This document shows, one piece after another, positions 4,074 to 26,504 of a stretch of 54,493 nucleotides of DNA; the first letter of the stretch is position 1, and every line of letters begins with the position of its first letter. The translations under genes were made by a program, and so were the position numbers. This DNA comes from a virus. Lineage: Duplodnaviria; Caudoviricetes. The stretch is taken from positions 1 to 54,493 of IMG/VR virus record IMGVR_UViG_3300025528_000010. One strand, given 5' to 3'. Below the pieces are notes generated by a model. It saw only the letters and a program-made list of their open reading frames with translations, was not told where the DNA came from and did not search any database.

Positions 4074-4277
4074 ATGTCACTGGTTGAAGTGCTGCGACCA
4101 GAGTTAGAGCGTACTGGCCTACCATGGAGGATAGAGAACGGGCGTCGGCACAAGAAGATCATACTCGCCGGCCAATTGGTCGGGATCATTCCAATGTCTG
4201 GCAAGGGTTCACTAGGGCGAAGGTGCCGCGTACTCCTCAACATCAGATCCCAGATACGACGTGCCGCCCGAGGCTGA
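4074..4277 (+). CDS. hypothetical protein, possibly HicA-like fold
   Basis: GAGG RBS; small and basic with WRIENGRRHKKI (G-x-x-H) motif. Confidence 0.55.
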   Translation: MSLVEVLRPELERTGLPWRIENGRRHKKIILAGQLVGIIPMSGKGSLGRRCRVLLNIRSQIRRAARG

Positions 4278-4278
4278 C

Positions 4279-5511
4279 ATGCGACTCAATCTCTACTATG
4301 GCGACTGTCGCGACATTCTTCGTTCGCTCATCGAGCGCGGCGTTCGTGTTCACTCGGTCGTCACTGACCCTCCCTACCATCTTGAGTCTGTCGTCAAGCG
4401 CTTCGGCCGCGACAATGCCAAAGGCGCCCGCTTCGGCAAGGATGGTCGTTTCGCTCGCCAGTCGCGAGGCTTCATGGGGAAGCTCTGGGACGGCGCCGAC
4501 AAAGACGGCACGCGGATCGCGCAAGACCCCGCATTCTGGCGCGGCGTCTACGATGTCCTCCTGCCGGGAGGGTACGTTGTTTCCTTCTCCTCGGCCCGAA
4601 CGGGACATTGGCAAGCCGTCGCAATGGAGATGGCCGGGTTCATCATGCACCCGTTCATCGGTTGGGTGTACGGCTCGGGATTCCCAAAGGGTCACAGCGC
4701 CGAGAGGGCGCTAGGAGACGCACCGGAGGCCGAGCGGTGGCGCGGATGGTATTACGGCACGCAGAGCCGTAAGCCCGCCATCGAGCCGATCTACGTGGCG
4801 CAGAAGCCGTTCTCGGAGAAGAACTGCGCCCTCAACATCCTTCGCCATGGCGTTGGCCCCGTGAATATCGACGGTTGCCGCGTGCCCGCAGAGGGTCGCC
4901 CGCTGCGCGTCGGGGACTACAAGGATACAAAAAACAACGTCTATTCTGGTCGGCTTGATGGCTCGATGGCTGGCGGCTCGAAGGCAGCGGGAACGACAGA
5001 CCTCGGTCGGTGGCCCGCCAATCTCATTCACGATGGGTCTGATGAGGTGGTCTCCTTGTTCCCGGATGCCCCAGGTCAACTTGCCGCTTCATCCACGAAC
5101 CCAAACTCGTCGAAGACCAGGAATGTCTACGGGCACTACAACGTCCCGCAGGCATCGATGCATCCAAGAAAAGACAGCGGTTCCGCCGCTCGCTTTTTCG
5201 AGAGCTACCCCTTTGATGGGGAGCCGTTGATCTACTGCTCAAAAGCATCGAGGAGTGACCGCGCCGGTTCTAAGCATCCAACTGTCAAGCCCATAAAACT
5301 GCTACAGGCCCTCATCCGACACGTCACTCCTCCGCATGGAATCGTATTGGACCCCTTTGCGGGATCCGGGACGACTGCCGAGGCGGCCATCCGCGAAGGA
5401 GTTGACTGCATCCTGATCGAGCGTGACCCAGAATATGTCGCTGACATCGAGCGGCGGTTCGGTCTCTGGACAGATGCCCATGAATATTTGGAAAGGATTG
5501 GGGTCCTATAG
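4279..5511 (+). CDS. orphan DNA amino-methyltransferase (N6-A/N4-C, beta class)
   Basis: GDC..VVTDPPY (motif IV) near the N-terminus; HPTVKP..VLDPFAGSGTT (motif I) near the C-terminus. Confidence 0.92.
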   Translation: MRLNLYYGDCRDILRSLIERGVRVHSVVTDPPYHLESVVKRFGRDNAKGARFGKDGRFARQSRGFMGKLWDGADKDGTRIAQDPAFWRGVYDVLLPGGYVVSFSSARTGHWQAVAMEMAGFIMHPFIGWVYGSGFPKGHSAERALGDAPEAERWRGWYYGTQSRKPAIEPIYVAQKPFSEKNCALNILRHGVGPVNIDGCRVPAEGRPLRVGDYKDTKNNVYSGRLDGSMAGGSKAAGTTDLGRWPANLIHDGSDEVVSLFPDAPGQLAASSTNPNSSKTRNVYGHYNVPQASMHPRKDSGSAARFFESYPFDGEPLIYCSKASRSDRAGSKHPTVKPIKLLQALIRHVTPPHGIVLDPFAGSGTTAEAAIREGVDCILIERDPEYVADIERRFGLWTDAHEYLERIGVL

Positions 5512-7612: not shown

Positions 7613-7891
7613 CTAGTATTTCATGACCACGAGGTCAACGGTCGTATCGGTGCCATGAGCCTTGACATAGACGTTGGCATCTTGCGGAAGACCTGATGCC
7701 GTGAACTCGCTCGGCGTCAGATCCGTTTGGCGGCCAATGATGATGCCGGCCGCGTCTATATCGGGATCGCTTGTACCAATGTGGACCATGATCTGGGAGG
7801 TTCCTGTAAGCTGGATGCCAACATTGGCCTCCCCCTGCGTGACCTGCGTCCAAGATGTCGCGTTGACCTGAAATCGCTCGGTGCTCGCCAT
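7613..7891 (-). CDS. small beta-rich virion-associated protein
   Basis: MASTERFQVNATSWTQV...; follows the fibre genes. Confidence 0.65.
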   Translation of the reverse strand: MASTERFQVNATSWTQVTQGEANVGIQLTGTSQIMVHIGTSDPDIDAAGIIIGRQTDLTPSEFTASGLPQDANVYVKAHGTDTTVDLVVMKY

Positions 7892-7892
7892 G

Positions 7893-10337
7893 TCATCCGA
7901 TCCTGTAGTTATCCGCTCGACCGAAGAGGATGGTGCTCCCAACAGAGAAAGTACCTTTCAGACCCGCCCCCATCCGAATACCAGAACCAACATTCATGCG
8001 GCTATTGACGAGGACCAAGGCACTGAGCCTCGGGAGAGTGGCAGAAATCCGGCTGCCGTATGAGAGACGCACGAAGCCATCGGACGAAAGATCAGGCAAA
8101 ATAGGATCAGAAAGCAGGCGATAAGAGGCGCGGAGCCGAGCGCTGCTCTCGACTCCTTGCAAGCGCGCATCAACTGCCACCGAATAGCGTAGCGCGAGGC
8201 TCGCTGATGCCGTCAAAGCGGGGAGAATCACATGCCCCCGGAGGCTGTAGAAGATGCTGATATGCCCTTGCGCCTCTGGTGACGGCAGGATCAGATCAGC
8301 TTGCCCGTCAATCGGATAGCCGCCAGCAGAATCAACCCGCAGCTCCGGCAGGGTAACGTTGGCATCGATTTTGACCGTCGCACCAAGGCTGCCGCTTACC
8401 CTGATCACCCCAAGGGTGAGGTCCCCCAATAGGACGAGTGGTACATCCACATCGCCTGTGGTCCGAACCGACGGAAGACGTGCATCCAGGTCAAACCAGA
8501 GAGGCATGTCGACTTCCACGGTCGCTTGGGGCGCCGGCATACGCGCTGTCAGCAAAACGTCGTAATGATCCGGCACCGGGTTGTCGGCATATGCCGCAAC
8601 TAGCAGTTTGGGAAGCGTGATTTCGGCTGAGATCTTCCCAGGAAATCCTACGGTACCGCTCGCCACCGTCGATGGCAGTCTGGCGTCCACAAGCACCCCG
8701 AGAGGGACGGAGACAGAACCGGATGCCCTCGGTGCCGGCATGCGGAGATCCGTGATGACACCGAGGGGGACGTGAGCATTCAACGTCACAACGGGCGACG
8801 GGAGCGTGAAGTCCGCCCAGACGCCGATCAGATTGACCTCGACGTCAATCTGACTCCTGATGTGCGGGAAAACGATCTCTGCCTGCAGTTCCAGCGGCCA
8901 CTTGATCAGACCGCTTGTGCGGAGCGCAGGGAAACGAGCGTCGACCTTGGCGCGCGAGGTGTAGTTACCCTCACCCTCTGCCGAGAAGCTCGGGAGAACG
9001 CAAAAGCTGTAGAGGTACGGAATGCCCGGCACCTCGTCATGCGAGGTTGAGTGTCCGATCTCCACATCGATGTGCAAGGTCTCGATGGGGATATCGGGAG
9101 ACCACACTTCGTCTGCAATGATCTCATAACTGTAAGAGGCTTCCCCCACATCCACATCGATGTGAGTCGTTTCGATGAGGAATGGCGGGGAAATTATCCA
9201 TTCATGTTCCGTCAGCTCAGCGCTGCCAGAGGCAGAAACTGACGGCAGACTCGCGCTGATGTCCGTCGAATAGATCAAGCGCGCAACGATCTCTACTTCG
9301 ACGGGTTGCAACCTGCTGCTTCTGTGGCTCCCTGCACTGATCGCTGCCGTGATGGCAGGAAGCTCCGCCGTGCTCCATGAAGTATCCCGGAAAGCTCTAA
9401 GGCTTGGCGGCTGCGTCCTCGAACCCGACAAGAAGCGACCACTCGCGGACCACTCGGCCCTTCCCCCGTTAGATGCAAAAAGGTCGACAGAGTGTGTGAG
9501 CGTGTGGGTGCTCGGATCGACATCGTAGATCCGAAAAGCATTTTGCGCGATGACCGCAAGCACACGACCATCCCGGCTATAGATCATCTCATACGTGTTA
9601 GGAACACTGGTATCCGTTCTGGGGGACGTAAAATTATCACCCGAGCGTTGATAGATAACGAATCCAAAGGGACCACTGACGAGAAAGAAACGCCCGTCGG
9701 GAGAGAAGGCAACCCCGTAACCGTGATTGTTTAGCGTTGAAACATTTAGCCTGGTAAAGTTGTTACCCTCTCGCTTCCAGACAGTGAAACCTGGGGTAGA
9801 ATCATTCCAGTTTTGAGGTACAGCGAGATATCGACCGTCTGGTGACCATGCGACGTGTTGAGCCTGCGTTGTTGCCGCTCCAGGCGGACGAATGCTGCTC
9901 ACCGGGACGCCGTTCTCGTCAAGCTCGAAAACAAGGCAGTTTCCATTTGAATTGGCTGGTAGTGAGCAAGCAAGGTATCGTTTTGAAGGGTCCAATGCGA
10001 GGCGCAGGACAGTTCCGATGCCCTGCGCAACAGGTCCGAGGTCGAAAGGGACTAGGGTGTCCCCTTCTCTCTTGAAACCCGCCAATCCGTTGGAACCGTT
10101 CCGAGCCGAATAGAGAGTTCGATCATCCCGCCAGATCGAACCCCAACACGTCGTATTGGCATCGTATCTCTGCAGGAACTGCAGCGCGTCGCCGACGCGC
10201 TTGTAAAAGTAAAGCCCTATCTCTCCTGCGAACGAGCCGACCGCCAGGTAGTTATCGTCTGGAGACCAGGCGGGATCAAGCGCCTGACTTCCCGGCAAGG
10301 TATCCGGCGCAGTTAGCTCGATGAAAGGGCCAGCCAT
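7893..10337 (-). CDS. fibre protein: N-terminal WD40-like beta-propeller plus ~16 repeats of 21 aa
   Basis: AWSPDDNYLAV, AWSPDGRYLAV, AFSPDGRFFLV blades; C-terminal LP-anchored 21-residue periodicity. Confidence 0.75.
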   Translation of the reverse strand: MAGPFIELTAPDTLPGSQALDPAWSPDDNYLAVGSFAGEIGLYFYKRVGDALQFLQRYDANTTCWGSIWRDDRTLYSARNGSNGLAGFKREGDTLVPFDLGPVAQGIGTVLRLALDPSKRYLACSLPANSNGNCLVFELDENGVPVSSIRPPGAATTQAQHVAWSPDGRYLAVPQNWNDSTPGFTVWKREGNNFTRLNVSTLNNHGYGVAFSPDGRFFLVSGPFGFVIYQRSGDNFTSPRTDTSVPNTYEMIYSRDGRVLAVIAQNAFRIYDVDPSTHTLTHSVDLFASNGGRAEWSASGRFLSGSRTQPPSLRAFRDTSWSTAELPAITAAISAGSHRSSRLQPVEVEIVARLIYSTDISASLPSVSASGSAELTEHEWIISPPFLIETTHIDVDVGEASYSYEIIADEVWSPDIPIETLHIDVEIGHSTSHDEVPGIPYLYSFCVLPSFSAEGEGNYTSRAKVDARFPALRTSGLIKWPLELQAEIVFPHIRSQIDVEVNLIGVWADFTLPSPVVTLNAHVPLGVITDLRMPAPRASGSVSVPLGVLVDARLPSTVASGTVGFPGKISAEITLPKLLVAAYADNPVPDHYDVLLTARMPAPQATVEVDMPLWFDLDARLPSVRTTGDVDVPLVLLGDLTLGVIRVSGSLGATVKIDANVTLPELRVDSAGGYPIDGQADLILPSPEAQGHISIFYSLRGHVILPALTASASLALRYSVAVDARLQGVESSARLRASYRLLSDPILPDLSSDGFVRLSYGSRISATLPRLSALVLVNSRMNVGSGIRMGAGLKGTFSVGSTILFGRADNYRIG

Positions 10338-10347
10338 CGAAACCTCG

Positions 10348-11769
10348 TCACGCGCTGTAGAGAATGAGGCCGTCTGCGCCGAAAGTAAGTTTCAGCTCCG
10401 AATCCTTTTCTGCTCTCTGCAAGCCGTTGAAGTCGATGAAGATCAAGGGTTTCTTGTCGACATGGGAATCATCGTAGATGACGGCGTAATTGAACCGTAG
10501 CGTGTCCTCGATGATGATCTGCGTCACGTCATCGAAGGCGATGGATACAGATGCGGGGCTGCGCACCTCCCAACGGCCGTTTTGCAGGGACTTTCCGCCT
10601 TCCGGCCAACCGTTCCCGTATACCTCATGAGCACCGCCACCCGTGACTTGGTCGAGGGTCGTGTCCGTTTTATCGAACGATGCGTCTGCACTCAACAGCG
10701 CAATTTTCAGGCTCTCGATGTTGATCGATCCGAGCGTCAGCCCCGGAACAACATCATTGTAGAAGTAGCCGACGCCGCGCGGAGGATCGATGTGAGAGCT
10801 GATTGCCTGTGCCGTCGATCCGGTGTTTACGTTCGCGAGTAGGTCGACAGCCTCGATAAATTCTCCTTCCAGGTACTCGAATGCCCTTCTGTTAGCTGCA
10901 TCAATCAGGTAGCGACCATCGGCGGTGAAGCCCAACAGGCTGCCGAACGTCCCAGAGAGGGTCTGGATCGGCTGAAACGTGTTTCCGGTGCGTCGGTAGA
11001 TGACGGTTGTAGGCTGTCCTGACGTCTGCCACGAGATCGCGACATGGCGACGATTTGGCGAGAACGCCGCTGTAACCGGATAGCCAAATTGCCCGCCAGA
11101 AATCTCACCAACTTTGAACAGTGTGTCGACGTCGGTTTTCCAGACCTCGACGAGGCCCGCATTATCACCAAAGAGAACAAAACGGCTATCCGCACTCCAC
11201 ACGGAGAAATCCAATGGAGTGTGCTTTTCCAATGGACGACGGACAGTAAAGGGGCTTGTTTCTGGCGCACCGTCGGGTCGGTAGTTATAAAAACTTCCAC
11301 CCGTTACACCTTGAATAACAAAACGGGCGTCAGGAGACAAAGAGATTGACCGAAGTGTCCCCTGGCTCAGGTTTCCAACATAGCCCGAGCTAACAATAGC
11401 CCCATCAACATTAATAGTATTCAGATAGACGTAATATTGCGAACTAATGGGGGCAGTCGCGACGTACTCCTTAGCAGGGGAGTACGAGGACCTATGCTTG
11501 TCGACTCCAGAGGTATTTGAGAGCTGCCTGGATGCAATTAACGTAAGATCCCTGTGAAATGTTTTCAGTTGGATGTCCCAGTAACCTTGAGTGTGAACCG
11601 CCGCAAGGTATCTGCTATCTCTCACAAAGAACAGAGCAGGGGGGTAATTTACAGCGTCTTTATTGCTGAGGGACGTGCTCGCGATCTGAACAAACCCCGC
11701 CTCGCTGAGCTCGAACATGCGAAGCGTGCCGTCACTCCAGGTCGCGAGGAGGGGCTTGCCGATTGCCAT
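10348..11769 (-). CDS. WD40-like beta-propeller protein with C-terminal virion-fibre-type domain
   Basis: LSPDARFV, WSADSRFV, FSPNRRHV, FTADGRYL blades; C-terminus LKIALL..EVYGNGWPEGG..YAVIYDD..PLIFIDF. Confidence 0.75.
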   Translation of the reverse strand: MAIGKPLLATWSDGTLRMFELSEAGFVQIASTSLSNKDAVNYPPALFFVRDSRYLAAVHTQGYWDIQLKTFHRDLTLIASRQLSNTSGVDKHRSSYSPAKEYVATAPISSQYYVYLNTINVDGAIVSSGYVGNLSQGTLRSISLSPDARFVIQGVTGGSFYNYRPDGAPETSPFTVRRPLEKHTPLDFSVWSADSRFVLFGDNAGLVEVWKTDVDTLFKVGEISGGQFGYPVTAAFSPNRRHVAISWQTSGQPTTVIYRRTGNTFQPIQTLSGTFGSLLGFTADGRYLIDAANRRAFEYLEGEFIEAVDLLANVNTGSTAQAISSHIDPPRGVGYFYNDVVPGLTLGSINIESLKIALLSADASFDKTDTTLDQVTGGGAHEVYGNGWPEGGKSLQNGRWEVRSPASVSIAFDDVTQIIIEDTLRFNYAVIYDDSHVDKKPLIFIDFNGLQRAEKDSELKLTFGADGLILYSA

Positions 11770-11771
11770 GA

Positions 11772-12200
11772 TCAGGCTCCCTTGGGCATCGTCACAGTGA
11801 ACGAAACCACGGTCACGTCGATCCCCTGGATGACCGAGGTCGAGGACAACTTGAGGTCGCCAGTGCCGCTGGTGTCCGATACATCGCCGTCCATGATGGC
11901 CTTGTCGTCCCCATCGAAGACGCGGAAGAAGACTGCGTTGCCCGTCTGGAGAGCCTGGACGGGATCGACGGGCTCGGCCGTGGCGTGTCCACCGTTGTTG
12001 GCATCTACGGCTGCCCCGAAAGCGGGCTTCTGCAACTCAAACTCGACGAGAAGAGTCTGATTGCTGATGGGCGTGTCCACACTTGCAGGCCGAGTACCGC
12101 CGTAGATGCGGAGCTTGGCTGCGCCCTCCCCAGCATCGAACAGTGCGGTGATCGTGTTACAGGCCGCAATGGCGGCGTCGGTGGAGATGCGAACTGCCAT
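11772..12200 (-). CDS. small virion structural protein (putative fibre subunit)
   Basis: GGAGA RBS; LRIYGGTRPA..GNAVFFRVFD..MDGDV..GDLKL motif typical of phage fibre or minor virion proteins. Confidence 0.7.
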   Translation of the reverse strand: MAVRISTDAAIAACNTITALFDAGEGAAKLRIYGGTRPASVDTPISNQTLLVEFELQKPAFGAAVDANNGGHATAEPVDPVQALQTGNAVFFRVFDGDDKAIMDGDVSDTSGTGDLKLSSTSVIQGIDVTVVSFTVTMPKGA

Positions 12201-12211
12201 GGGAGTCTCCA

Positions 12212-12251
12212 GTGTCACGTTTGCAGTGCTCTTATACTGAAAACGTGACAC
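12212..12251. promoter_or_regulatory. paired 19-bp operator-like site
   Basis: GTGTCACGTTT-N18-AAACGTGACAC. Confidence 0.65.
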
Positions 12252-12263
12252 CAGGACAAGAAC

Positions 12264-15200
12264 TCACTCCCGATAGAAAAACGAGATGGCCGCGTAGGGA
12301 ATATAGGTCAAGGGGATGATCATGTCCGGCGCGACGCCGTAATACCCATCCGACTCTTCGCCAGGCTCCTTGGGATGGATGATGATGGTCGGCCCCTCCC
12401 CTTCATCGGGCAGAACGATGACATCAACATCCTCGCCAGCCCCGTCGTCCCGTTCGACCGCATCACTCTCCTCGATCTCTCCGCTCTCAGGGTCACGCTC
12501 GACAAGGATGATCTCCTCTGGTGTCACGACCACCATCTGCTCACAATTGACAAATGCAATGTCGAGAATGATGCCCTCGTGCTGCCAGTTGATCGGAGGA
12601 TATGGTTTTTCGACTAGGGTATCCGTCTCGGTGTCAACCTCGAAGATTGTAAACGGATACTCAAAGCCCCCGTGAGCAACCACGATGTGATTGCAAGACG
12701 AGAAGTCGATTGGCCCAAACGGAACGAGCTTACTATCGACGGCCTCGTAATTGAGTGTACCGTCGACGAACTTATAGAGAACGATGTCACTCATGCCGTC
12801 GGGGCGCCTGTAGGTCGCTGCGAAATAGACCTCGAACGGAGAGAATGCGAGATAGGAGGCCAGCATGTCGGGCTCGAACTCGACGCCCTTGAGGCTAAAG
12901 TTCGTCATCCCAAACGTATTGAAGATGTGCCGCCCCTGGCTGCTAATAGGGTCCTCCTCGCCGTTAAGCGCGAAATAAGAGAACGCAATTGGCGTCTGGG
13001 AAAACACCATGTTGGTGATTGAGGCTCCTTGGGAGTGCATCATGTAGCCCTTCTCGATGAAGGTCTTGGTGCCCTCGTTGAGCCAGTAGACGCTTACGAA
13101 TGTGCCGTTGAGCCTTGAGAGCTTGATGTAGGTGTTGTCCTTGCGTTTCACCCCCAACTGCAGGCCGTCGGGGTTCTTCCAGAGGACGAAAGTTCCTTGC
13201 GGGCTGTACTGTACGTCATAGACATAGCTCGCGTTAAAATCGTCCTCGAATGGGACGTAATCGAGTATGCTCATGTCCGCTTTGAGGAAGTGACGGCCGT
13301 AACCGCTACTATGCGTCGTGTGAATGAGGCTGGAGTCGGGAGAGAAGCCATTGTTCCGGCTTGTCTCAGAAAGATACCCTTCGGCAATCTGGCGATAAGA
13401 GCGAGCCGAGAAGTGCTCCCCTCTCTTATAAATCCAATCTGCGTACAGGACAAACCGGTTGTCTGGCGTTACCATCGGCCCGAGGCGTGGGCTATAGTTT
13501 GTAGGCCGCGCTTGCAACCACACCTCAGTCAAACCGGAATCGCTGAACTGCAGCACCTTAAGATAGTAGTAAGGCTGCCCCCAATCCCTTCCCACCGCTG
13601 CGTAAACCAACTGTCCGTCAGCAGAGAACGAGACTGTCGCATAGCCAATACCCAACGGCTTATCAGGATCAGCAGATGCGATAATCTCGTAACTCTCGCC
13701 GTTGAACGCATAGATGGCATAATCCTGCCCCTCGTACCTAGAGAATATCACGAGCAAGCGGGACCCGTCTGGACTCACAGCGGCTGAGTAAGGATAGTAG
13801 GACGTGCCGGTCGGCAGCCAACTCGGAATTGGAATATCCTGAAGCTCGACAAATTGTGTCTCCGTGTACTGTCCGAACCGGATTCGTCTTTCTGACCACC
13901 GCGTATAGATGATGCGATTGCCAACCGTCATGCAGATGCTACCGAGACCGCCAAAACCGATATCGACGGCACTATAGGCGAAATAGAAATTATCCCCGAC
14001 ACGACGGTAAACCAGATCTTTGATCAACAAAAAATCACCATTGAAAGACCACCTAACATTCATTTGTCCGATAACATCTTCAATGGTGAATGGGAGTTGC
14101 TCATACAACTCTTCATCGTGATTCCATTTCCAGACACGCACTGACCACACCTCTGGCCCGCCAGGGCGAGATGCGACCGCAAGGTAAATACCGTCTGGAG
14201 ACCAACAAAAGACTGTCTCACCATTCACATCGCCGCCGATGGTCTGCAGCGGTGTGAGCTGCTCTCCGTCCCAGCGCGCAATGTGAAGGATCTCCCCCTC
14301 GGTATAAGCAAGCTGTGATCCATCAGGCGAAAAGGCGCGATAGATCTGCAATCGCTCATAAGTTCGGATCGTTCCAGGTACCGCCATCAGCGGCGTATGG
14401 AGGACGAACTCGTCAACCTTCCTCTGGTACAGCCCTCTTAGGCCATACATGTAGGTGCTGTCTCGAGAGAACTTAACCTCCGGGCTATAACCGGTGTCCC
14501 ATAACAAGTCGCCGATGGTCGCAGGAACAAAACCATACTCGGGGTGAAGAAAGTACGAGATGGGTCCGAGGCGAATCGACGTTGGCGAAATGAGCGTTAC
14601 GACCAGGATGTCCCCATCTGGGTTGAAGGTGGCGCGTCTTTCAGTACCCGCAGTCGATGGCAGGTCCCCGAATGCCGAGAAGCCAGACTCGCCCCACTCA
14701 TAGACCTTGAGGTTGTCGGCGGCGTTCCCATTGAGGATGAAGAAGCGATCATCAGGAGAGACCGCCAACAATCGACCCGACGGAAGACCAGAGATCGAGG
14801 GGAAATTCGTCCCCTCGTTGCTATAAATCGCGTGATTAGTGGTGGTCTTGACAATAAGAAACGTATCTGCAGGCGAGAACTCAACTGCTTCGAGGGACCC
14901 CGCAGGTACGCCGACAGAGGCAATCAGATTGAGATTGTCGAGCTCATCACGCTGATAGATCTTCACCGTGTTCGGTGAGTCAGTGCGGACGAGTGCCAAT
15001 CTCGACCCGTCGCGGGTGAAGCTCGCGTGAGAGATGTAGGCAGGCGGTGTCGGCAGATCGAGAGCATGGTTGAACCGCATGTAGGTCGGCCCTGTCCGAC
15101 GATAGAGCACCGCAGCTTCACCCGTCGAGCCGCCGAGAAGCAGGTAGCTATCATCACCAGAGAAAACCCGGATGCCCGTTTGAGGGACTGGAAAATCAGG

Positions 15201-15404
15201 GTTGCCAAAGATTGGCATCTCGTCGACCCGCAGGTCGTATTCGAGTGCCATTTGGTTCATATCCGGGGCGAATTTCGCCTGTTTGGCAGGGGACGCCAAT
15301 GGGGGCTGCACCTGGTACTGGACCGGGTTCTCTCCGCGCAGGCCGACCTGCAAAATGCTGATGTAGGGATAGAAGTCAAGCGGGCGTACAGTGAAGTGTC
15401 TCAT
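12264..15404 (-). CDS. large multi-beta-propeller (WD40-like) tail protein, putative receptor-binding protein
   Basis: Many FSPDG/WSPDG/FTRDG/FNPDG blade motifs over 1046 aa; located in the tail-fibre region. Confidence 0.75.
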   Translation of the reverse strand: MRHFTVRPLDFYPYISILQVGLRGENPVQYQVQPPLASPAKQAKFAPDMNQMALEYDLRVDEMPIFGNPDFPVPQTGIRVFSGDDSYLLLGGSTGEAAVLYRRTGPTYMRFNHALDLPTPPAYISHASFTRDGSRLALVRTDSPNTVKIYQRDELDNLNLIASVGVPAGSLEAVEFSPADTFLIVKTTTNHAIYSNEGTNFPSISGLPSGRLLAVSPDDRFFILNGNAADNLKVYEWGESGFSAFGDLPSTAGTERRATFNPDGDILVVTLISPTSIRLGPISYFLHPEYGFVPATIGDLLWDTGYSPEVKFSRDSTYMYGLRGLYQRKVDEFVLHTPLMAVPGTIRTYERLQIYRAFSPDGSQLAYTEGEILHIARWDGEQLTPLQTIGGDVNGETVFCWSPDGIYLAVASRPGGPEVWSVRVWKWNHDEELYEQLPFTIEDVIGQMNVRWSFNGDFLLIKDLVYRRVGDNFYFAYSAVDIGFGGLGSICMTVGNRIIYTRWSERRIRFGQYTETQFVELQDIPIPSWLPTGTSYYPYSAAVSPDGSRLLVIFSRYEGQDYAIYAFNGESYEIIASADPDKPLGIGYATVSFSADGQLVYAAVGRDWGQPYYYLKVLQFSDSGLTEVWLQARPTNYSPRLGPMVTPDNRFVLYADWIYKRGEHFSARSYRQIAEGYLSETSRNNGFSPDSSLIHTTHSSGYGRHFLKADMSILDYVPFEDDFNASYVYDVQYSPQGTFVLWKNPDGLQLGVKRKDNTYIKLSRLNGTFVSVYWLNEGTKTFIEKGYMMHSQGASITNMVFSQTPIAFSYFALNGEEDPISSQGRHIFNTFGMTNFSLKGVEFEPDMLASYLAFSPFEVYFAATYRRPDGMSDIVLYKFVDGTLNYEAVDSKLVPFGPIDFSSCNHIVVAHGGFEYPFTIFEVDTETDTLVEKPYPPINWQHEGIILDIAFVNCEQMVVVTPEEIILVERDPESGEIEESDAVERDDGAGEDVDVIVLPDEGEGPTIIIHPKEPGEESDGYYGVAPDMIIPLTYIPYAAISFFYRE

Positions 15405-20481: not shown

Positions 20482-21731
20482 AGGTCGTAATTCTCCAAGA
20501 CCTGATAGCTGAGGCCGAACTGAGCGACGGAGTCAGTCACCCAATCGATCTCGAGGAGGTCTGACGCGAAGCGGACTACGAACACCCACGAGATGCCGAT
20601 GAGTGATTGAGGGGTAAGCTCCTCGACGGGTAGGCGCTCCCGCACCCACAGGACCGAGAACTCCGTGTCCGGCAGCGTCTCGACGAAATCGACCGTATGG
20701 TGGTGATAGGTTCCGTCAGCCATGCGGAGCATGATGCGACGGAAGACGGTCGAGTCCTTGTAGGTGTGCCCGAACATCAGGCCGGGAATGAGGATCGCGA
20801 ATCCGTTGCCGGTGATCGCATAGAACGGAACGTCGTTCTCCCACGAGGGCACAAGGAACTCGCGGTCGCGTCCCCGCATGCGGATGAAGAACTCGATGAC
20901 CTCCTGAACCTCTCTATGGTCCCTGCCGAGGAACGAGGCTTGGACGATGCGTGACGGGAAGTCATAAGGCTTGAAGCTCCTCGTCGCGCCAAACCCGTAG
21001 TCCTCCTGCTCTCGCGGATAGACGTAAGTGACGTCGACCTGGTTCCCCCAGTTGGGACGCTTCATGAAGACTTCCCGCGTTCCGATCATCTCCCCCGGCG
21101 ATGTCTCGGGGAACACCTCGGTGGCGGAGCCTGGATCCACCTCGAAGCGGATCGGGAGAGTCGTCACATCGCTCGTGTACCGACGAGCCTTCGGCTCCGC
21201 GCGCAGGTAGCCTTGCAGGGCCGGATAGACCCGCGCCCCAGCCGGGAAGGTGACTTGGCTTTCATCGGCAAATTGCAGATCGGTAAAGGAGAACCCGGAC
21301 AGTAGTCGCGTCTCCATCCGCAGCCCATCGACAAGGAGGACTGGCAACCCTGGACGCAGCCAGTAAGGGGGGCTGTTTGGACTGGGCCACGCAGGATGGG
21401 GTTTCCCGTAACTTACTTGCCGCTGACCGGCCCCCAACGTCGAAGTGAGAACGACGTACTTCGATGGCTCCGGGATAATCGTTTTGTCAGCGAGGCCGCG
21501 CGCCATGAAGTAGTCGAGCTGAAGCTTGCTCTCCCCGTTGAAATGGGCCGTGTACTCGACATAACGCCGAGGGTAGTAACGGACGGCTCGTCGCTGCTCC
21601 GTACCGAGGCCCGAAGTGATGATGTCCGTCTTGAACTCATAGGAGACCCTCACCCGGTCACGCCAGTTCGGGACTCCGGGAAAGATGTTGATGTCCCCAC
21701 CACTCGGATAGACCGTACTGACAACCATCAC
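20478..21731 (-). CDS. distal tail-like protein
   Basis: Directly after the tape measure gene; PNW..V..E.KTDII...G.EQRRA motif. Confidence 0.75.
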   Translation of the reverse strand: MMVVSTVYPSGGDINIFPGVPNWRDRVRVSYEFKTDIITSGLGTEQRRAVRYYPRRYVEYTAHFNGESKLQLDYFMARGLADKTIIPEPSKYVVLTSTLGAGQRQVSYGKPHPAWPSPNSPPYWLRPGLPVLLVDGLRMETRLLSGFSFTDLQFADESQVTFPAGARVYPALQGYLRAEPKARRYTSDVTTLPIRFEVDPGSATEVFPETSPGEMIGTREVFMKRPNWGNQVDVTYVYPREQEDYGFGATRSFKPYDFPSRIVQASFLGRDHREVQEVIEFFIRMRGRDREFLVPSWENDVPFYAITGNGFAILIPGLMFGHTYKDSTVFRRIMLRMADGTYHHHTVDFVETLPDTEFSVLWVRERLPVEELTPQSLIGISWVFVVRFASDLLEIDWVTDSVAQFGLSYQVLENYDL

Positions 21732-24700
21732 GCGACTCCGAGAGCCTCGCGGAGCGTGCTGCGGTTCGCCCTGACCAAATTGATGAACGCCTGCTCGCCA
21801 ACAGCGGTGGAAAGCCCCTGGCTGACGACATCGCCACTGTCGAAGGCGTTGACCACCTTCACGACCGGGGGCTGCGCGACTGTACCGCCGTTAGCACGGT
21901 GGCGCGGATCGTTCTCAGTGAGGACCTCCTCGCCAACCTTGAGGATCGCAGGCACTTCGTCTGGCTTTAGGCCAGCGATACCCCCAGTGTGGTAGGCCAT
22001 CGCATTGGCAAACCAGAGAGGGCTCACAGCACGTTTGGAACCGCGCGTACTCCCCACCACGCCACCCGTATGGAAGAAACCAAACAGACTGTTGATTCCA
22101 CCAGAAAGAAAGCCCCCAATGCCCTGCAGCATCTTGAGAAGGGCCACTCTGACGATCATCTTCCCGATCTCGATCAGGAAATCGGCCGCGAACTGCAGAA
22201 AGGCATCACGGAGAGCGACAATCGCCTTCTCACCGTTCGCGATGGCTTGAGCGAAACGGTCGAAGGCGTTGGTGATGCCACTAGCCATCATCTCGGTGAT
22301 CTGCGCACCGCTGATGACCGCCTTCTGCCCCGCGCGCTGGACCCTGAGTTCGAGCGCAGCCAGATTGGTAAGCGCAATTTCGGCATCCGGGCCACCCATG
22401 GCCTGCCAGAACTCGCGCGCCTTCTGGATCGCCACGAGGAGTTGCTGGTTCACACGCTCGATGGCAGCATCCGTGCGCTGCATCGCCTCGATGTCGCCTC
22501 GCTCAGCCTGCAAGGCCCGAAGTTGCTCAAGCGACGAGCGCTTTTCCTCAAGCTGTGTGATCCGATTTTGAACTTCCTCAATTGCCTTCTTCTTCTTTTC
22601 CTCCTCGCTCAGAGCGTTGTTCAGGTTCCAGAGTTCCTCCGCCTGCTGACGGATAAGGCCAAGCTCTTGCTCCGTGATGAAGGGGTTCTTTTCACGGGCC
22701 TTGCGGATGTGATCCTCAATAAACGCCTCTTTCTCCTTCCCCTCGAGCTTAAGGCGTTGCTGCGAAATCTCGAACTCGTTATCCGCAATCTGCTTTTTAG
22801 TCGCCTCGGAAGCCTTTTCACGCTCCTCGGCCTGCTTCCGTAACTCCTGGCTATGCTCCTTTGCTCGATCAACAATATCATCGTATGCTTTCAGGATGGC
22901 GTCGGCACGATCCGCATGCCTATCCATCTGCCCGAACACCTTGTCTCGGACAGTACCCGGAGCACCACCGGCCGCCGCATCGGAGGCGTTGTGCCGCCCA
23001 ACGCGCCCCGCATTTACGGCCGAGTAGAGATCAAGCAAGTTGGTCCCCGCCGTGACGCCAGCATCCTTGAGATAATCACGGATGGCGTTAAATAGCTTCT
23101 CGATGCTGGCGTCCCGAGTGTAACCATACTTCGCGCGCTGAGGCTCACCCATCTGGATGAGTCCGATGTGCTGACCCCACTTGGTGGTCGGACCGACCTT
23201 CCATGGGTCGAATGTTCCACCCGTCTCATATGAGATGACGGTCAGAAGGTCTTTGGCCGAAATGCGCAGCTCTTCTGCAATACGTACCGCATTGGCGACG
23301 ATGCGCTCCATCTGCTCACCTTGGGGGGTGGCGCGCATCTTGCGGTAGTCTGATTCGTAGTATCTGGCGTTGACGGCATCTATGGCACGCGCGCGCGCGG
23401 ATCCCAACTCAGCTAGCTTTGCCCGCCACCCGCGCTGATTACCGATGGCTTCGACGGCCTTGACATACTCGGCGTCGATCTCAGCCAGCTCCTTCATCCG
23501 CTTCATCTCATCGGCAGTCTCCTTGACGAAACCTTTCAGCTTCTCAAGGGCAGCCTGATAGACTTCGACGGAGCCGGAAGCCGACGAGAAGCCCTCCCGA
23601 TTGCCCTGCGCAGCCCGTGTCAGGTCGTCGAGTGTCTTGCCTGTCTCATCAATTACCCGACCGACCTCTTCGAGCTTGCTTCCATACTGCTCGGCCAGAA
23701 CCGCTGCCTCGCCGACACGCTCACCCGACTCCTTGTACGCCTTGGCGAGGTCATAGATCTCCTGCAGCATCTTCTTCGCATCGAGGCTCGTCACCTCGGC
23801 GTTGAGCCGCTGGACCTTCCGAATGAACTCGTCGATCTTCTTGGAATCGAAACTATCGACGAGAGCGCGCACTTTGCGCACATCCGCATCGTCAAACAGG
23901 AGACCAGAAAGTCCGCCCAGGGCGTTGGATGACAGTTTCTTGCGGAGATTGTCGCGCGCCTCCTCAAAAGCACGGAGCTGTTCCGCAAAGTTTCGCTCGA
24001 CGTCAATCAGGGTGACATTCTTGACGGACTTCACCCAATCGCGAGACTTATCGACCGCCTTGTCGTAGGCAGTCAGAATCTCCTCCATCAGCCGCTTGTG
24101 CTCATCGACTGCTCGGGTCGCCTCGTCCACACCACCAACAAGTTTACCAATGGCGAATTCGATGCCGTAGGCGAGGGCCGTGAGGGCGGCCGCAGGGAAC
24201 AAACGACTCAGTGCCCTACCGAGCGTAAGAACAGACCCAAGAAGCGCAGCCGCAGCCGTCTTTGTCGCATTGAGAGACGAACCAAATACAATGAGTGAAT
24301 CACGCGCCCTAATGATCTTCGCATTGAAGGCGTCCACTCCCCCACTCAGTTTCACCAACCATTGGGTAATCTTAAATGCGACAAGGAGTTTGAAGATCTC
24401 AAACAGAGCCTCAACGTTCCTGATGAGGAAAGTAACAGCCCTTGTGACGCTGCCGAGGGCTGAGCCGAGGGACAGGAAGAAATCTCGGCCTTCCCGGCTT
24501 CGGAAATAGCCGATCATCTCTTCCAGGGCCTCGTTGAACGCCTTGATAAAACCGCCCTCACCCACGCGGAGACGGGCCTGATATATCTCGTTCGAGAACT
24601 GCCCCATCAGGGCCGTTGTCGACCTCAGAGAGTCCGCCAATTGCGGGCCGAAACGTCGGTTCAGCTCATCAGCAAAGGCGAGAAGATTCGTCTCTGATGC

Positions 24701-26449
24701 CAGCACCTCCCCCTTCTGCATCAGCTCATCGAGCTGGGAGGCGCTCAGACCTAGTGCGTCCGCGAAGATATTGAAGGCACCGGCAAGACGATCACCAAGT
24801 TGCCTGCGCAGCTCTTCCGATGAGACCTTGCCCTTGCTGATCATCTGCTGCAGGGCGAGGAAAATGCCGCTCATCTGCTCGGTCGACGCCTTGTTGACCC
24901 GAGCGGCCTCCGCCACAGCGAGAAAGACCTTGCGCGTACTCTCACTGGCCCAATTCGCCGCTTGCGCCGCGACCGCGAACTTCGAGTATTCGTCCGCCAG
25001 GATACCGAACTCGATGCCAAGTCGGCTCGCTTGTCGCTCGAGCCATTGCAGCTCCGTGTTGACAGCCGACTGGTTCTGACCGAGGACGACGCCAATGCGG
25101 TTCTGCGCAGCCTCGAGCTTCTGGTAGGCGCCGATCACACCGCTGATATGATTAATGGCGCCATAGAGACCGAAGTAGGCCGTTGACAGAGACAGCACCT
25201 CGCCACGGAGGCGCTGCGTCAGTGACATTGCCTTACGGGACTCGCCATAAATCGCCTGGAAGATACCACGGATGCCGCCGAGGCTGTGGAGGCTCCCTGG
25301 CATGCGGCGGAGGGTATCCAATTGCCGCTGAAGTTCAAATCGCGCCTCTCGCGCAGCCGCGCTCACCTCACGGAGAGCCTGCGCCTGCTGCACGGTCGGA
25401 CCGCCGTTCGCCTTGATTTCGGCCGTCAGTCGACGGACCTCGGCATTCAGGACCTCATACGCCTCCCGAGCCTTCTCGACCTCCGCCCTCTGCTTACGAA
25501 TGGCCTCGGCCGTGCGCGGATCCGCAAACCCTCCTCCGCCTGTCGAGAAGCGCGCCATTGCCGCTTGCAGGGTGGCGGCCCGCTGCAGCGCCTCATTGGC
25601 CTTCTGAGTCGCCTCGGCAATCTTCTCTTGGTTGATGGATACGTTTCCGAGCTTCGCGGCCGTGTCGCTCGCGATACGCTGGATCTCCGCAAGCTCGGTT
25701 CGCCCCTTTTGCAGCGCGTCTGCCGTCTTCTGGGCAGCGCGGGCGAGACGCTCGGTCTCAGTGCGGAGTGCCGCCTCATGTTTCGTGGCGTTCTGCAGCT
25801 CCGTATTGACCGAGGCGAGAGTACTCTTCGTCTTCAGATACTCGGCATTGAGCTTCTCATAGGTGGCCTGCGCTGCATCAGCCGCCGCACGGGCCGTCGC
25901 CAACTCACCTTCGAGGATAGCCTGTGCCGATGCAGCAGCATTTGACCATGCCGATTTGGACGCATGTCTGGCGGCGCGCTCATTGACGCGATCAAGGGCA
26001 CGCTGGACCGATGCAAGCTCTTTGTTCGCCGCTCGCATCTCCTTGCGAGCCTTCTTCACGGCCTCGGCCTGGGCCTCCTGGCTCTTTGCAAGCTCTTCGG
26101 ATTGCGCGCGCAGACGAGAGCTTTCCTCAGCGGCTTGCTTCGACTCCTGCGTCACCCGCTCGAGGTCGTCGCTTGCGCTCTTGGCCTCCTGCTCGAGCTT
26201 GCCGAGGGCAGCGGCGGCCCTGTCAAGCTCGGCTGCAACTTTGTTGAGGGCTGACAGGCCCGAGATTTCAGCGGATAGGCGCTTGAACTCATCCCCCAGC
26301 TTACCAAGGACGCTGTCCGCCTCCTTGGCCGATTTCGTGGTCTTTGAATTCTGAGAGACAAGATCTTTGAGGGCGTCGGAGACCGACTCAATCGCCTTGG
26401 TGGCCTCATTCTTGGCTTTGATGACGAGGCGAATGTCCTTCTCGGCCAT
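21728..26449 (-). CDS. tape measure protein with internal lytic-transglycosylase-like domain
   Basis: ~1570 aa Ala-rich helical protein; QMISKGKVSSEELRRQLGDRL; C-terminal FHTGG..DEVPAILKVGEEVL; SYETGG/GLIQ domain. Confidence 0.92.
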   Translation of the reverse strand: MAEKDIRLVIKAKNEATKAIESVSDALKDLVSQNSKTTKSAKEADSVLGKLGDEFKRLSAEISGLSALNKVAAELDRAAAALGKLEQEAKSASDDLERVTQESKQAAEESSRLRAQSEELAKSQEAQAEAVKKARKEMRAANKELASVQRALDRVNERAARHASKSAWSNAAASAQAILEGELATARAAADAAQATYEKLNAEYLKTKSTLASVNTELQNATKHEAALRTETERLARAAQKTADALQKGRTELAEIQRIASDTAAKLGNVSINQEKIAEATQKANEALQRAATLQAAMARFSTGGGGFADPRTAEAIRKQRAEVEKAREAYEVLNAEVRRLTAEIKANGGPTVQQAQALREVSAAAREARFELQRQLDTLRRMPGSLHSLGGIRGIFQAIYGESRKAMSLTQRLRGEVLSLSTAYFGLYGAINHISGVIGAYQKLEAAQNRIGVVLGQNQSAVNTELQWLERQASRLGIEFGILADEYSKFAVAAQAANWASESTRKVFLAVAEAARVNKASTEQMSGIFLALQQMISKGKVSSEELRRQLGDRLAGAFNIFADALGLSASQLDELMQKGEVLASETNLLAFADELNRRFGPQLADSLRSTTALMGQFSNEIYQARLRVGEGGFIKAFNEALEEMIGYFRSREGRDFFLSLGSALGSVTRAVTFLIRNVEALFEIFKLLVAFKITQWLVKLSGGVDAFNAKIIRARDSLIVFGSSLNATKTAAAALLGSVLTLGRALSRLFPAAALTALAYGIEFAIGKLVGGVDEATRAVDEHKRLMEEILTAYDKAVDKSRDWVKSVKNVTLIDVERNFAEQLRAFEEARDNLRKKLSSNALGGLSGLLFDDADVRKVRALVDSFDSKKIDEFIRKVQRLNAEVTSLDAKKMLQEIYDLAKAYKESGERVGEAAVLAEQYGSKLEEVGRVIDETGKTLDDLTRAAQGNREGFSSASGSVEVYQAALEKLKGFVKETADEMKRMKELAEIDAEYVKAVEAIGNQRGWRAKLAELGSARARAIDAVNARYYESDYRKMRATPQGEQMERIVANAVRIAEELRISAKDLLTVISYETGGTFDPWKVGPTTKWGQHIGLIQMGEPQRAKYGYTRDASIEKLFNAIRDYLKDAGVTAGTNLLDLYSAVNAGRVGRHNASDAAAGGAPGTVRDKVFGQMDRHADRADAILKAYDDIVDRAKEHSQELRKQAEEREKASEATKKQIADNEFEISQQRLKLEGKEKEAFIEDHIRKAREKNPFITEQELGLIRQQAEELWNLNNALSEEEKKKKAIEEVQNRITQLEEKRSSLEQLRALQAERGDIEAMQRTDAAIERVNQQLLVAIQKAREFWQAMGGPDAEIALTNLAALELRVQRAGQKAVISGAQITEMMASGITNAFDRFAQAIANGEKAIVALRDAFLQFAADFLIEIGKMIVRVALLKMLQGIGGFLSGGINSLFGFFHTGGVVGSTRGSKRAVSPLWFANAMAYHTGGIAGLKPDEVPAILKVGEEVLTENDPRHRANGGTVAQPPVVKVVNAFDSGDVVSQGLSTAVGEQAFINLVRANRSTLREALGVA

Positions 26450-26466
26450 CGGTGCCAATCTCCGTG

Positions 26467-26504
26467 TGTCACGTCTATAGTGCCGTAGTACCATAGACGT
26501 GACA
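26467..26504. promoter_or_regulatory. paired 19-bp operator-like site
   Basis: TGTCACGTCTAT-N14-ATAGACGTGACA. Confidence 0.65.

Follow-up and report, generated by a model that had tools for sequence, protein, structure and literature searches.

The virus record IMGVR_UViG_3300025528_000010 (Duplodnaviria; Caudoviricetes), analysed here over its whole length as a window of 54,493 bp that is one complete genome, encodes an 814-aa protein with a regular array of 21-residue units, and close to it a 142-aa protein and a 473-aa propeller protein. The question raised by this locus (7893-12200) is whether the array is a rope onto which copies of the 142-aa protein are docked as beads, or a shaft that folds by itself. 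An initial annotation had proposed that the small protein is threaded in many copies onto the repeats by beta-strand complementation, so that the repeat number sets the length of a fibre. Judged by its sequence, the 142-aa protein is a member of a family of solved fibre beads, and on balance we favour the 21-residue array as the rope of a bead fibre.

A regular array of 21-residue units

The 814-aa open reading frame (ORF) is present at 7893-10337 on the minus strand, and its product can be divided into four parts.

9378-10337, minus strand: N-terminal beta-propeller head (aa 1-320), with WD40/PD40/propeller Pfam matches at aa 108-304
8997-9377, minus strand: linker (aa 321-447) with a conserved PYLY motif and an internal duplicate (IETTHIDVDVGE / IETLHIDVEIGH), from the sequence and conserved alignment columns
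7974-8996, minus strand: candidate rope of 16 tandem 21-residue units (aa 448-788), from [L/M/F]-P anchoring and autocorrelation
7896-7973, minus strand: Gly-rich conserved C-terminal tail (aa 789-814, ending ...YRIG), from the homologue alignment

The initial annotation described about 16 repeats, mostly of 21 residues and starting with L/M/F-P, and our analysis bears this out. With [L/M/F]-P anchoring, 14 of the 16 units are exactly 21 aa long, one is 22 aa and one is 25 aa. In the autocorrelation of aa 440-800 (BLOSUM62, 500 shuffles), z is 11.1 at lag 21 and falls to 7.0 and 5.6 at lags 42 and 63, respectively. When proteins of the window are put through one and the same test, the 814-aa protein reaches z 10.7 at lag 21, whereas 10 other proteins stay at z <= 5.1 at every lag and peak at lag 21 in no case. 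The repetition is confined to the protein level, as had been noted earlier, and Tandem Repeats Finder reports no DNA repeat in 7800-10400.

The consensus of the unit, obtained from 77 repeat instances in 27 proteins, reads hydrophobic-P-x-hydrophobic-x-hydrophobic-x-G-x-hydrophobic-x-hydrophobic-P-hydrophobic-x-hydrophobic-x-a-D-hydrophobic-R; it is descriptive, since the instances were picked by a hidden Markov model (HMM). Across these 77 instances each unit carries two strands of alternating hydrophobic residues. The hydrophobic-Pro anchors are spaced alternately 11 and 10 residues apart, which would fit one strand per bead monomer, and the spacing of the HMM-detected units is a multiple of 21 almost throughout. 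The HMM built from the window repeats under-counts divergent units, detecting 14 of the 16 in the window and between 0 and 2 in distant ropes, and unit numbers were therefore counted by tracks at lags 20-22. A search of the ESM Atlas with the repeat domain returned nothing beyond unnamed viral clusters at <= 0.87, which is a lead at most. In the C-terminal tail, the last G does not vary among 10 aligned homologues, which also keep the ...F.IG ending; the tail is possibly an anchor to the virion.

The 142-aa protein and its solved relatives

The gene of the putative bead is separated from the 814-aa gene by that of the 473-aa protein.

11772-12200, minus strand: bead, a 142-aa protein of the garland / chain-like-fibre dimer family (phrog_3758 'virion structural protein', E 5e-36)

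The 142-aa protein starts at the ATG at 12200, and the same Met begins all 24 aligned homologues (51-76% identity). A GGAG lies 7 nt upstream of this ATG, in agreement with the strong ribosome-binding site described in the initial annotation. Searched against the PDB as a single sequence, the protein matches 9rkv_A (E 4.3e-15) and 44nx_B (E 1e-4), and a profile of 25 bead sequences strengthens both matches (E 2.8e-19 and E 1.6e-8, respectively). By matching length, 9rkv_A (a 141-aa chain) was taken as gp014 of phage 7-7-1, and 44nx_B (a 147-aa chain) as the fiber-dimer I protein gp40 of phage A1002. The best named relatives in tblastn are those of Rhizobium phages (53%), Atu_ph07 (46%), and Milano gp127 and 7-7-1 gp012 (44.8%). 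The window bead has no Pfam match, and the PDB searches with the single sequence and with the profile give no direct match to GP4 gp80, the 140-aa bead that is chain 8jou_a. The bead homologue of Amorphus orientalis carries the source label 'DUF2190 domain-containing protein'.

Dimers have been reported for the homologues gp125/gp127 of Milano (PMC10811340), gp40 of A1002 (PMC13730344), and gp014 of 7-7-1 (PMC12796354).

Predicted bead-rope binding and a proposed mechanism

A complex of four beads (25-row alignment) with aa 512-574 of the 814-aa protein (three units, nt 8616-8804) was predicted with ESMFold2, together with 3 controls. The interaction prediction score from aligned errors (ipSAE) is 0.60, 0.56, and 0.37 (median 0.56) for the bead-repeat complex versus 0.01 for the best control, which the tool grades as 'weak support' while specifying no interface. 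The predicted local distance difference test (pLDDT) of the partner is 58-60, and the runs share at least 90% of their contacts. A multimer prediction of the small protein with the repeats had been suggested as a check on the initial annotation, and at the tool's grade its outcome points weakly towards the threading proposed there. The threading itself, and the rule that repeat number gives length, are also in line with the homology of the bead and with the conserved periodic neighbour described below, and both are kept here as parts of a model.

We propose that a chain-like virion fibre, with beads on a rope, is the product of the genes at 7893-12200 in this temperate siphophage. The beads would be dimers of the 142-aa protein, and the rope would consist of the sixteen 21-residue units of the 814-aa protein, forming an extended chain of alternating-hydrophobic, proline-punctuated strands. 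Each rope strand would complete the open beta-sandwich of a bead via sheet augmentation. There would probably be one dimer per unit, giving up to ~16 dimers or 32 beads per rope, and the unit number would fix the bead number and therefore the fibre length. Scaled from A1002 (~300 A for 11 dimers), the fibre would be ~45 nm long; the 21 aa per unit compare with ~24 rope residues per dimer in A1002 (268 residues for 11 dimers). With the polarity of the A1002 rope, the N-terminal propeller of the rope protein would likely be the distal receptor-binding head, and the C-terminal tail likely the anchor. We infer this binding, the stoichiometry of one dimer per unit and the polarity, as well as a position at the tail tip and presence in the virion.

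The bead and periodic genes in related loci

A blastn search of the region and a tblastn search of the 814-aa protein gave 0 matches in 50,697 phage records, and single-protein scans for related loci found one near-identical contig only. A scan with the bead alignment yielded 7 viral and 3 genomic loci, of which a viral near-copy of the window (L002) and two genomic loci that are too short (L008 and L009) were left out of the synteny count. In all seven remaining loci (L007, L010-L015), a 21-residue-periodic protein (z 5.8-14.9) is encoded after the bead gene, and in 6/7 a 473-type gene lies between the two. With L009 included, a 473-type gene follows the bead gene in 7/8 loci; none was found by BLAST in L015.

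The 21-residue period is also seen, again in products of genes that come after a bead gene, in gp010 and gp009 of 7-7-1, in a 703-aa protein of RHph_N46, and in gp575 of Atu_ph07. Milano gp2 shows periods of 41 and 22 (z 10.4), and Milano gp3 reaches z 8.9. BLAST does not link the periodic proteins of 7-7-1, Milano, RHph_N46, and Atu_ph07 to the 814-aa protein of the window, and their repeat sequences have diverged.

By lag tracks, the unit number is ~15.6 in the window and ranges from ~5 to 37 across 20 relatives. The heads of the rope-type proteins differ as well. Most are propellers, several give no Pfam match, no head is recognised in the short protein of L011, and in L015 a 21-residue-periodic protein (12544-14400) has a Laminin_G_3 head (concanavalin A-like lectin, E 6.9e-22) in place of the propeller. 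Varying unit numbers and swapped heads are what a modular shaft scaffold would show.

Several of these loci have further peculiarities. In the prophage of L007 (Mesorhizobium sediminum KCTC 42205), the rope-type gene at 11876-13852 is split into consecutive ORFs of 168, 194, and 331 aa, of which the first and second match the propeller head and the third holds the repeats; this gene may be frameshifted or decayed. In L013, three tandem bead paralogues (141, 142, and 141 aa; 9523-10932) stand before the 473-type gene, recalling A1002, where two bead proteins occupy separate stretches of one rope. The pairs gp010/gp009 of 7-7-1 (L001 10964-13407) and gp2/gp3 of Milano (L019 1527-3916) have two repeat flavours with a common 21-residue period, namely GDW-YP-Y units and APMA[D/E]A units, the latter behind a propeller-like N-terminal part. 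At the C termini of both 7-7-1 proteins, of the 703-aa protein of RHph_N46, and of Atu_ph07 gp575 there is a basic cluster and then a short hydrophobic strand (e.g. ...RRRRQFMVIRKW), possibly a common anchor.

Comparison with known fibres

Chain-like fibres have been solved by cryo-electron microscopy since 2023 in GP4, VP1, Bas63, and A1002, and the beads of GP4 and VP1 share the A1002 fold (PMC13730344). In the Pseudomonas podophage A1002 (PDB 44NX/44NY), bead dimers of gp40/gp41 are bound to the rope protein gp39 via beta-sheet augmentation, and the fibre-dock domain comprises 226 + 30 + 12 = 268 residues that carry 11 dimers over a length of ~300 A (PMC13730344). A1002 resembles the window in its homologous bead (profile E 1.6e-8) and in its bead genes beside the rope gene and, as we read the window, in its tandem dimers on one polypeptide. 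It also has the rope orientation that we propose for the window, with the C terminus as anchor and the N terminus at the distal end. In KPP25 the bead and rope genes likewise adjoin (gp08, gp07, gp06). The two systems differ in that the A1002 rope lies within a split podophage nozzle, ends in an immunoglobulin (Ig)-like domain, and has 11 sites for two bead proteins, whereas the window belongs to a siphophage with a single bead gene, its candidate rope is a regular array of 16 units joined to a beta-propeller, and its module includes two more conserved propeller proteins.

The closest solved and the closest named bead relatives are those of the garland system of Milano and 7-7-1, the best PDB match being 9rkv_A. 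The gene order of these phages is also that of the window, with the bead gene followed by the gene of a propeller protein with a C-terminal domain and then by genes of 21-residue-periodic proteins. Unlike the window phage, they are flagellotropic Agrobacterium myophages, and their dimers have been placed in a ring around the distal ends of tailspikes and short fibres on the baseplate of a contractile tail. In 7-7-1, gp014 (PDB 9RKV, an entry on 'tail fibers') is the garland protein, which forms homodimers around distal parts of the fibres (PMC12796354). Milano gp125/gp127 form dimers with the fold of T4 gp8 and A511 gp105 in a seemingly similar filament, and what strings them was left open (PMC10811340). 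As a possible string, the Milano authors put forward gp126, another small protein, which has a long string at its N terminus (PMC10811340). For A511, three gp105 dimers are described in that report as arranged 'like beads on a string' on an extended BW3 chain (PMC10811340).

In Fiber I of the Ralstonia podophage GP4 (PDB 8JOU), five gp80 dimers are docked on a separately encoded rope, according to the A1002 report (PMC13730344). Like the window as we read it, GP4 thus has dimers of a ~140-aa bead on a rope, and the A1002 and Bas63 papers describe the same fold and quaternary design. The same sources place the separate GP4 rope on an Ig-like collar, with the fibre pointing up to the capsid, which differs from the window. 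A 325-aa protein encoded beside gp80 (L018 27948-28925, minus strand) has Gly-rich units with 10- and 20-residue periodicity (z 5.0 and 4.7); it matches no PDB chain and was not adopted as the GP4 rope. The collar/whisker of the Escherichia myophage Bas63 and the gp105/BW3 assembly of A511 lie at the neck or within the baseplate, and each rope there carries no more than 2-3 dimers.

The beads-on-a-rope design is therefore already known, and the principle is not new. What would be novel here is its occurrence in a siphophage, a highly regular rope on the same polypeptide as a receptor-type head, and the conservation of two additional propeller proteins in the module.

Weighing a rope against other arrangements

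The strongest competitor of a rope is an autonomous shaft, in which the units would form a trimeric or otherwise homo-oligomeric structure or a beta-solenoid, and the 142-aa protein would be a garland or connector on folded fibre domains, as gp014 is in the model of 7-7-1. We regard this as unlikely, although it deserves more weight than any other alternative. Periodic beta structures are common in phage fibre shafts, which counts in its favour. A self-folding solenoid, which the initial annotation had named as an outcome opposed to threading, did not appear when the monomer was modelled. In the AlphaFold2 (AF2) prediction of aa 330-814 with a 34-row alignment, the mean pLDDT is 39.7, 395 of the 485 residues fall below 50, and neither a solenoid nor any confident fold emerges despite the very regular array. 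Because the alignment is shallow and an oligomer is invisible to the method, the missing fold is weak evidence. The autonomous shaft is opposed further by the ipSAE of the bead-repeat model relative to its controls, by the homology of the bead to A1002 gp40, which is a rope-docking protein, and by the co-occurrence of bead and 21-residue-periodic genes in 7/7 loci and in 4 named phages.

Several observations count against a rope. A monomer AF2 run, blind to an oligomeric fold, cannot rule out a homo-oligomeric shaft. The score of the predicted complex may mirror likeness and not binding, because similar complexes have already been solved. KPP25 gp06, a homologue of the A1002 rope, shows no significant periodicity (z <= 2.4), so that known ropes are not as a rule marked by it; by eye, this protein has hydrophobic-Pro motifs about every 20 residues. 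The bead homologue of Vibrio phage CKB-S1 lies inside a baseplate module and has no 21-residue-periodic neighbour, a case that suits an autonomous shaft. In 7-7-1, the garland dimers are modelled on distal tail-fibre domains, with no string resolved (PMC12796354), and beads of the garland family may bind folded partners instead. The periodicity of a 667-aa neighbour in Pseudomonas phage Rollin is not significant.

It is improbable, and clearly more so than an autonomous shaft, that the beads are carried by another string, such as the linker (aa 321-447), some stretch of the 473-aa or the 1046-aa protein, or the product of a 92-aa ORF next to the 814-aa gene, while the array has another role. 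The proposal of gp126 by the Milano authors speaks for such a string, as does the 473-type gene that accompanies the bead gene in most loci. On the other side, no gene like gp126 lies between those of the bead and the 473-aa protein in the window, the units match docking sites in size and strand pattern, and it was with the repeats that the complex prediction gave its weak pass. That the module has no part in a virion fibre, and is instead a set of propeller proteins with, for instance, a role at the cell surface or in lysogeny, is very improbable, as its genes end the tail operon between the J-like protein and the endolysin, the 7-7-1, Milano, and Atu_ph07 homologues are labelled virion structural or virion-associated in GenBank, and bead homologues are found in solved virion structures.

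Propeller proteins of the module

Two further propeller proteins are encoded on either side of the bead gene.

10348-11769, minus strand: 473-aa protein with a 7-bladed beta-propeller (aa 1-329) and a beta-rich C-terminal domain of ~140 aa (aa ~335-473) (phrog_24741, E 6e-53)
12264-15404, minus strand: 1046-aa multi-propeller protein, gene just upstream of the bead gene (PD40/WD40-type matches)

The two-part architecture of the 473-aa protein agrees with the initial annotation. AF2 models it with a pLDDT of 78.6 and a predicted template modelling score (pTM) of 0.71, and in VIA the propeller aligns with 3u4y_B (Z 24.7, root mean square deviation 3.0, 285 residues aligned over aa 5-327). Its homologues are gp011 of 7-7-1, gp1 of Milano, and gp576 of Atu_ph07. 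A C-terminal domain of about the size of the bead could be a fused bead; in hhalign, the bead profile and the 473-aa profile match with a probability of 0.5%, and the profile of the C-terminal domain finds nothing below E 1 in the PDB. The Foldseek and VIA lists for the 473-aa protein are filled by propellers over aa 2-329 and barely probe this domain. The idea that the 473-aa protein caps the fibre is a possible one.

Homologues of the 1046-aa protein are encoded upstream of the bead gene in 5/7 loci with sequence there, namely L007, where two adjacent ORFs match, and L010-L013. From this synteny, the 473-aa and 1046-aa proteins appear to be conserved partners in the module.

Genome setting

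PHROG scans of the window identify an integrase, terminase, portal, protease, major head protein, tail terminator, tape measure (1588 aa), and major tail protein, the last of these with an Ig-like domain. Behind them are distal tail proteins and a J-like tail protein of 785 aa. No sheath family turned up among 20 window proteins scanned, and the phage is a siphophage. It is probably temperate, because it carries an integrase.

21728-26494: tape measure protein (TMP; phrog_2335, E 4.6e-219)
7613-7891, minus strand: small beta-rich ORF, 92 aa from the ATG at 7891 or 109 aa from a TTG at 7942 (weak match to phrog_4772, unknown function, E 4.9e-5)
4261-5511, plus strand: 416-aa ORF with a DPPY motif (VVTDPPYHL)

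The initial annotation had called the repeat array a second tape measure. This term survives only as an analogy, since the genome has the ordinary TMP listed above and the rope would stay in the fibre; the 814-aa protein itself has no TMP family match in Pfam or PHROGs.

After the gene of the J-like protein come those of a 300-aa fibre-like protein, a 244-aa protein, the 1046-aa multi-propeller protein, and the 142-aa, 473-aa, and 814-aa proteins, and then the 92-aa ORF. A GH108 endolysin and a spanin follow this ORF, and the putative fibre module thus has the gene of the J-like tail-tip protein on one side and the lysis genes on the other. From this gene order, the module occupies the usual site of side-fibre or receptor-binding protein genes. 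The 92-aa ORF begins 1 nt past the stop codon of the rope gene and stands before the endolysin gene; its product might assist in fibre assembly or be an additional component. The DPPY motif of the 416-aa ORF is typical of N6-adenine/N4-cytosine DNA methyltransferases.

The spacer before the bead gene

12201-12263, minus strand: 63-nt spacer with an RNA hairpin (arms TCACGTTT/AAACGTGA) and the GGAG ribosome-binding site, from the sequence and the RNA fold

An operator pair like those before capsid and tube genes had been assigned to this spacer. Its inverted repeat is 8 bp long, formed by the two arms above, and was not found before the capsid or tube genes. The 8-mer is not enriched in the genome, with 3 matches versus 1.46 expected and 21 of 100 shuffles reaching 3. 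The spacer folds instead as RNA (GGUGUCACGUUU...AAACGUGACACUGG) with -30.2 kcal/mol (z -3.2; 1 of 200 shuffles is as good), and the hairpin touches the GGAG. The spacers of relatives at the bead gene are 53-89 nt long, and in 11 of them the hairpin is not conserved (z -0.2 to 1.5). The operator reading was dropped, as the 8-mer is not enriched and the hairpin not conserved; the hairpin could tune the expression of a high-copy subunit.

Implications for phage fibres

The locus also suggests what might string the Milano garland dimers together, and this suggestion can be tested. Two virion proteins with a 21-residue period are encoded 2 and 3 genes downstream of Milano gp127, and the same arrangement is found in 7-7-1, where periodic proteins are likewise encoded downstream of gp012. 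The proteins of the 7-7-1 capsid fibres are stated to be unknown, and the main text of that report makes no mention of gp009-gp013 (PMC12796354). A speculative extension, which we put somewhat below even the autonomous shaft in likelihood, is that 7-7-1 gp010/gp009 and Milano gp2/gp3 are the missing garland string, that the long flexible flagellum-grasping capsid fibres of 7-7-1 are chain-like fibres and not classical trimeric ones, and that the repeat number (~5 to 37) is an evolvable length dial.

Beads-on-a-rope fibres are known from few solved phages, with 2-11 bead dimers. Among the solved ropes named in the cited papers, that of GP4 is a separate protein docked on a collar, and those of Bas63 and A1002 belong to a collar protein and a nozzle protein, respectively. 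The locus described here would extend this design to a temperate siphophage related to Hyphomicrobiales prophages. The unit count varies widely among its relatives, and fibre length would therefore be set, and would have evolved, via the repeat number.

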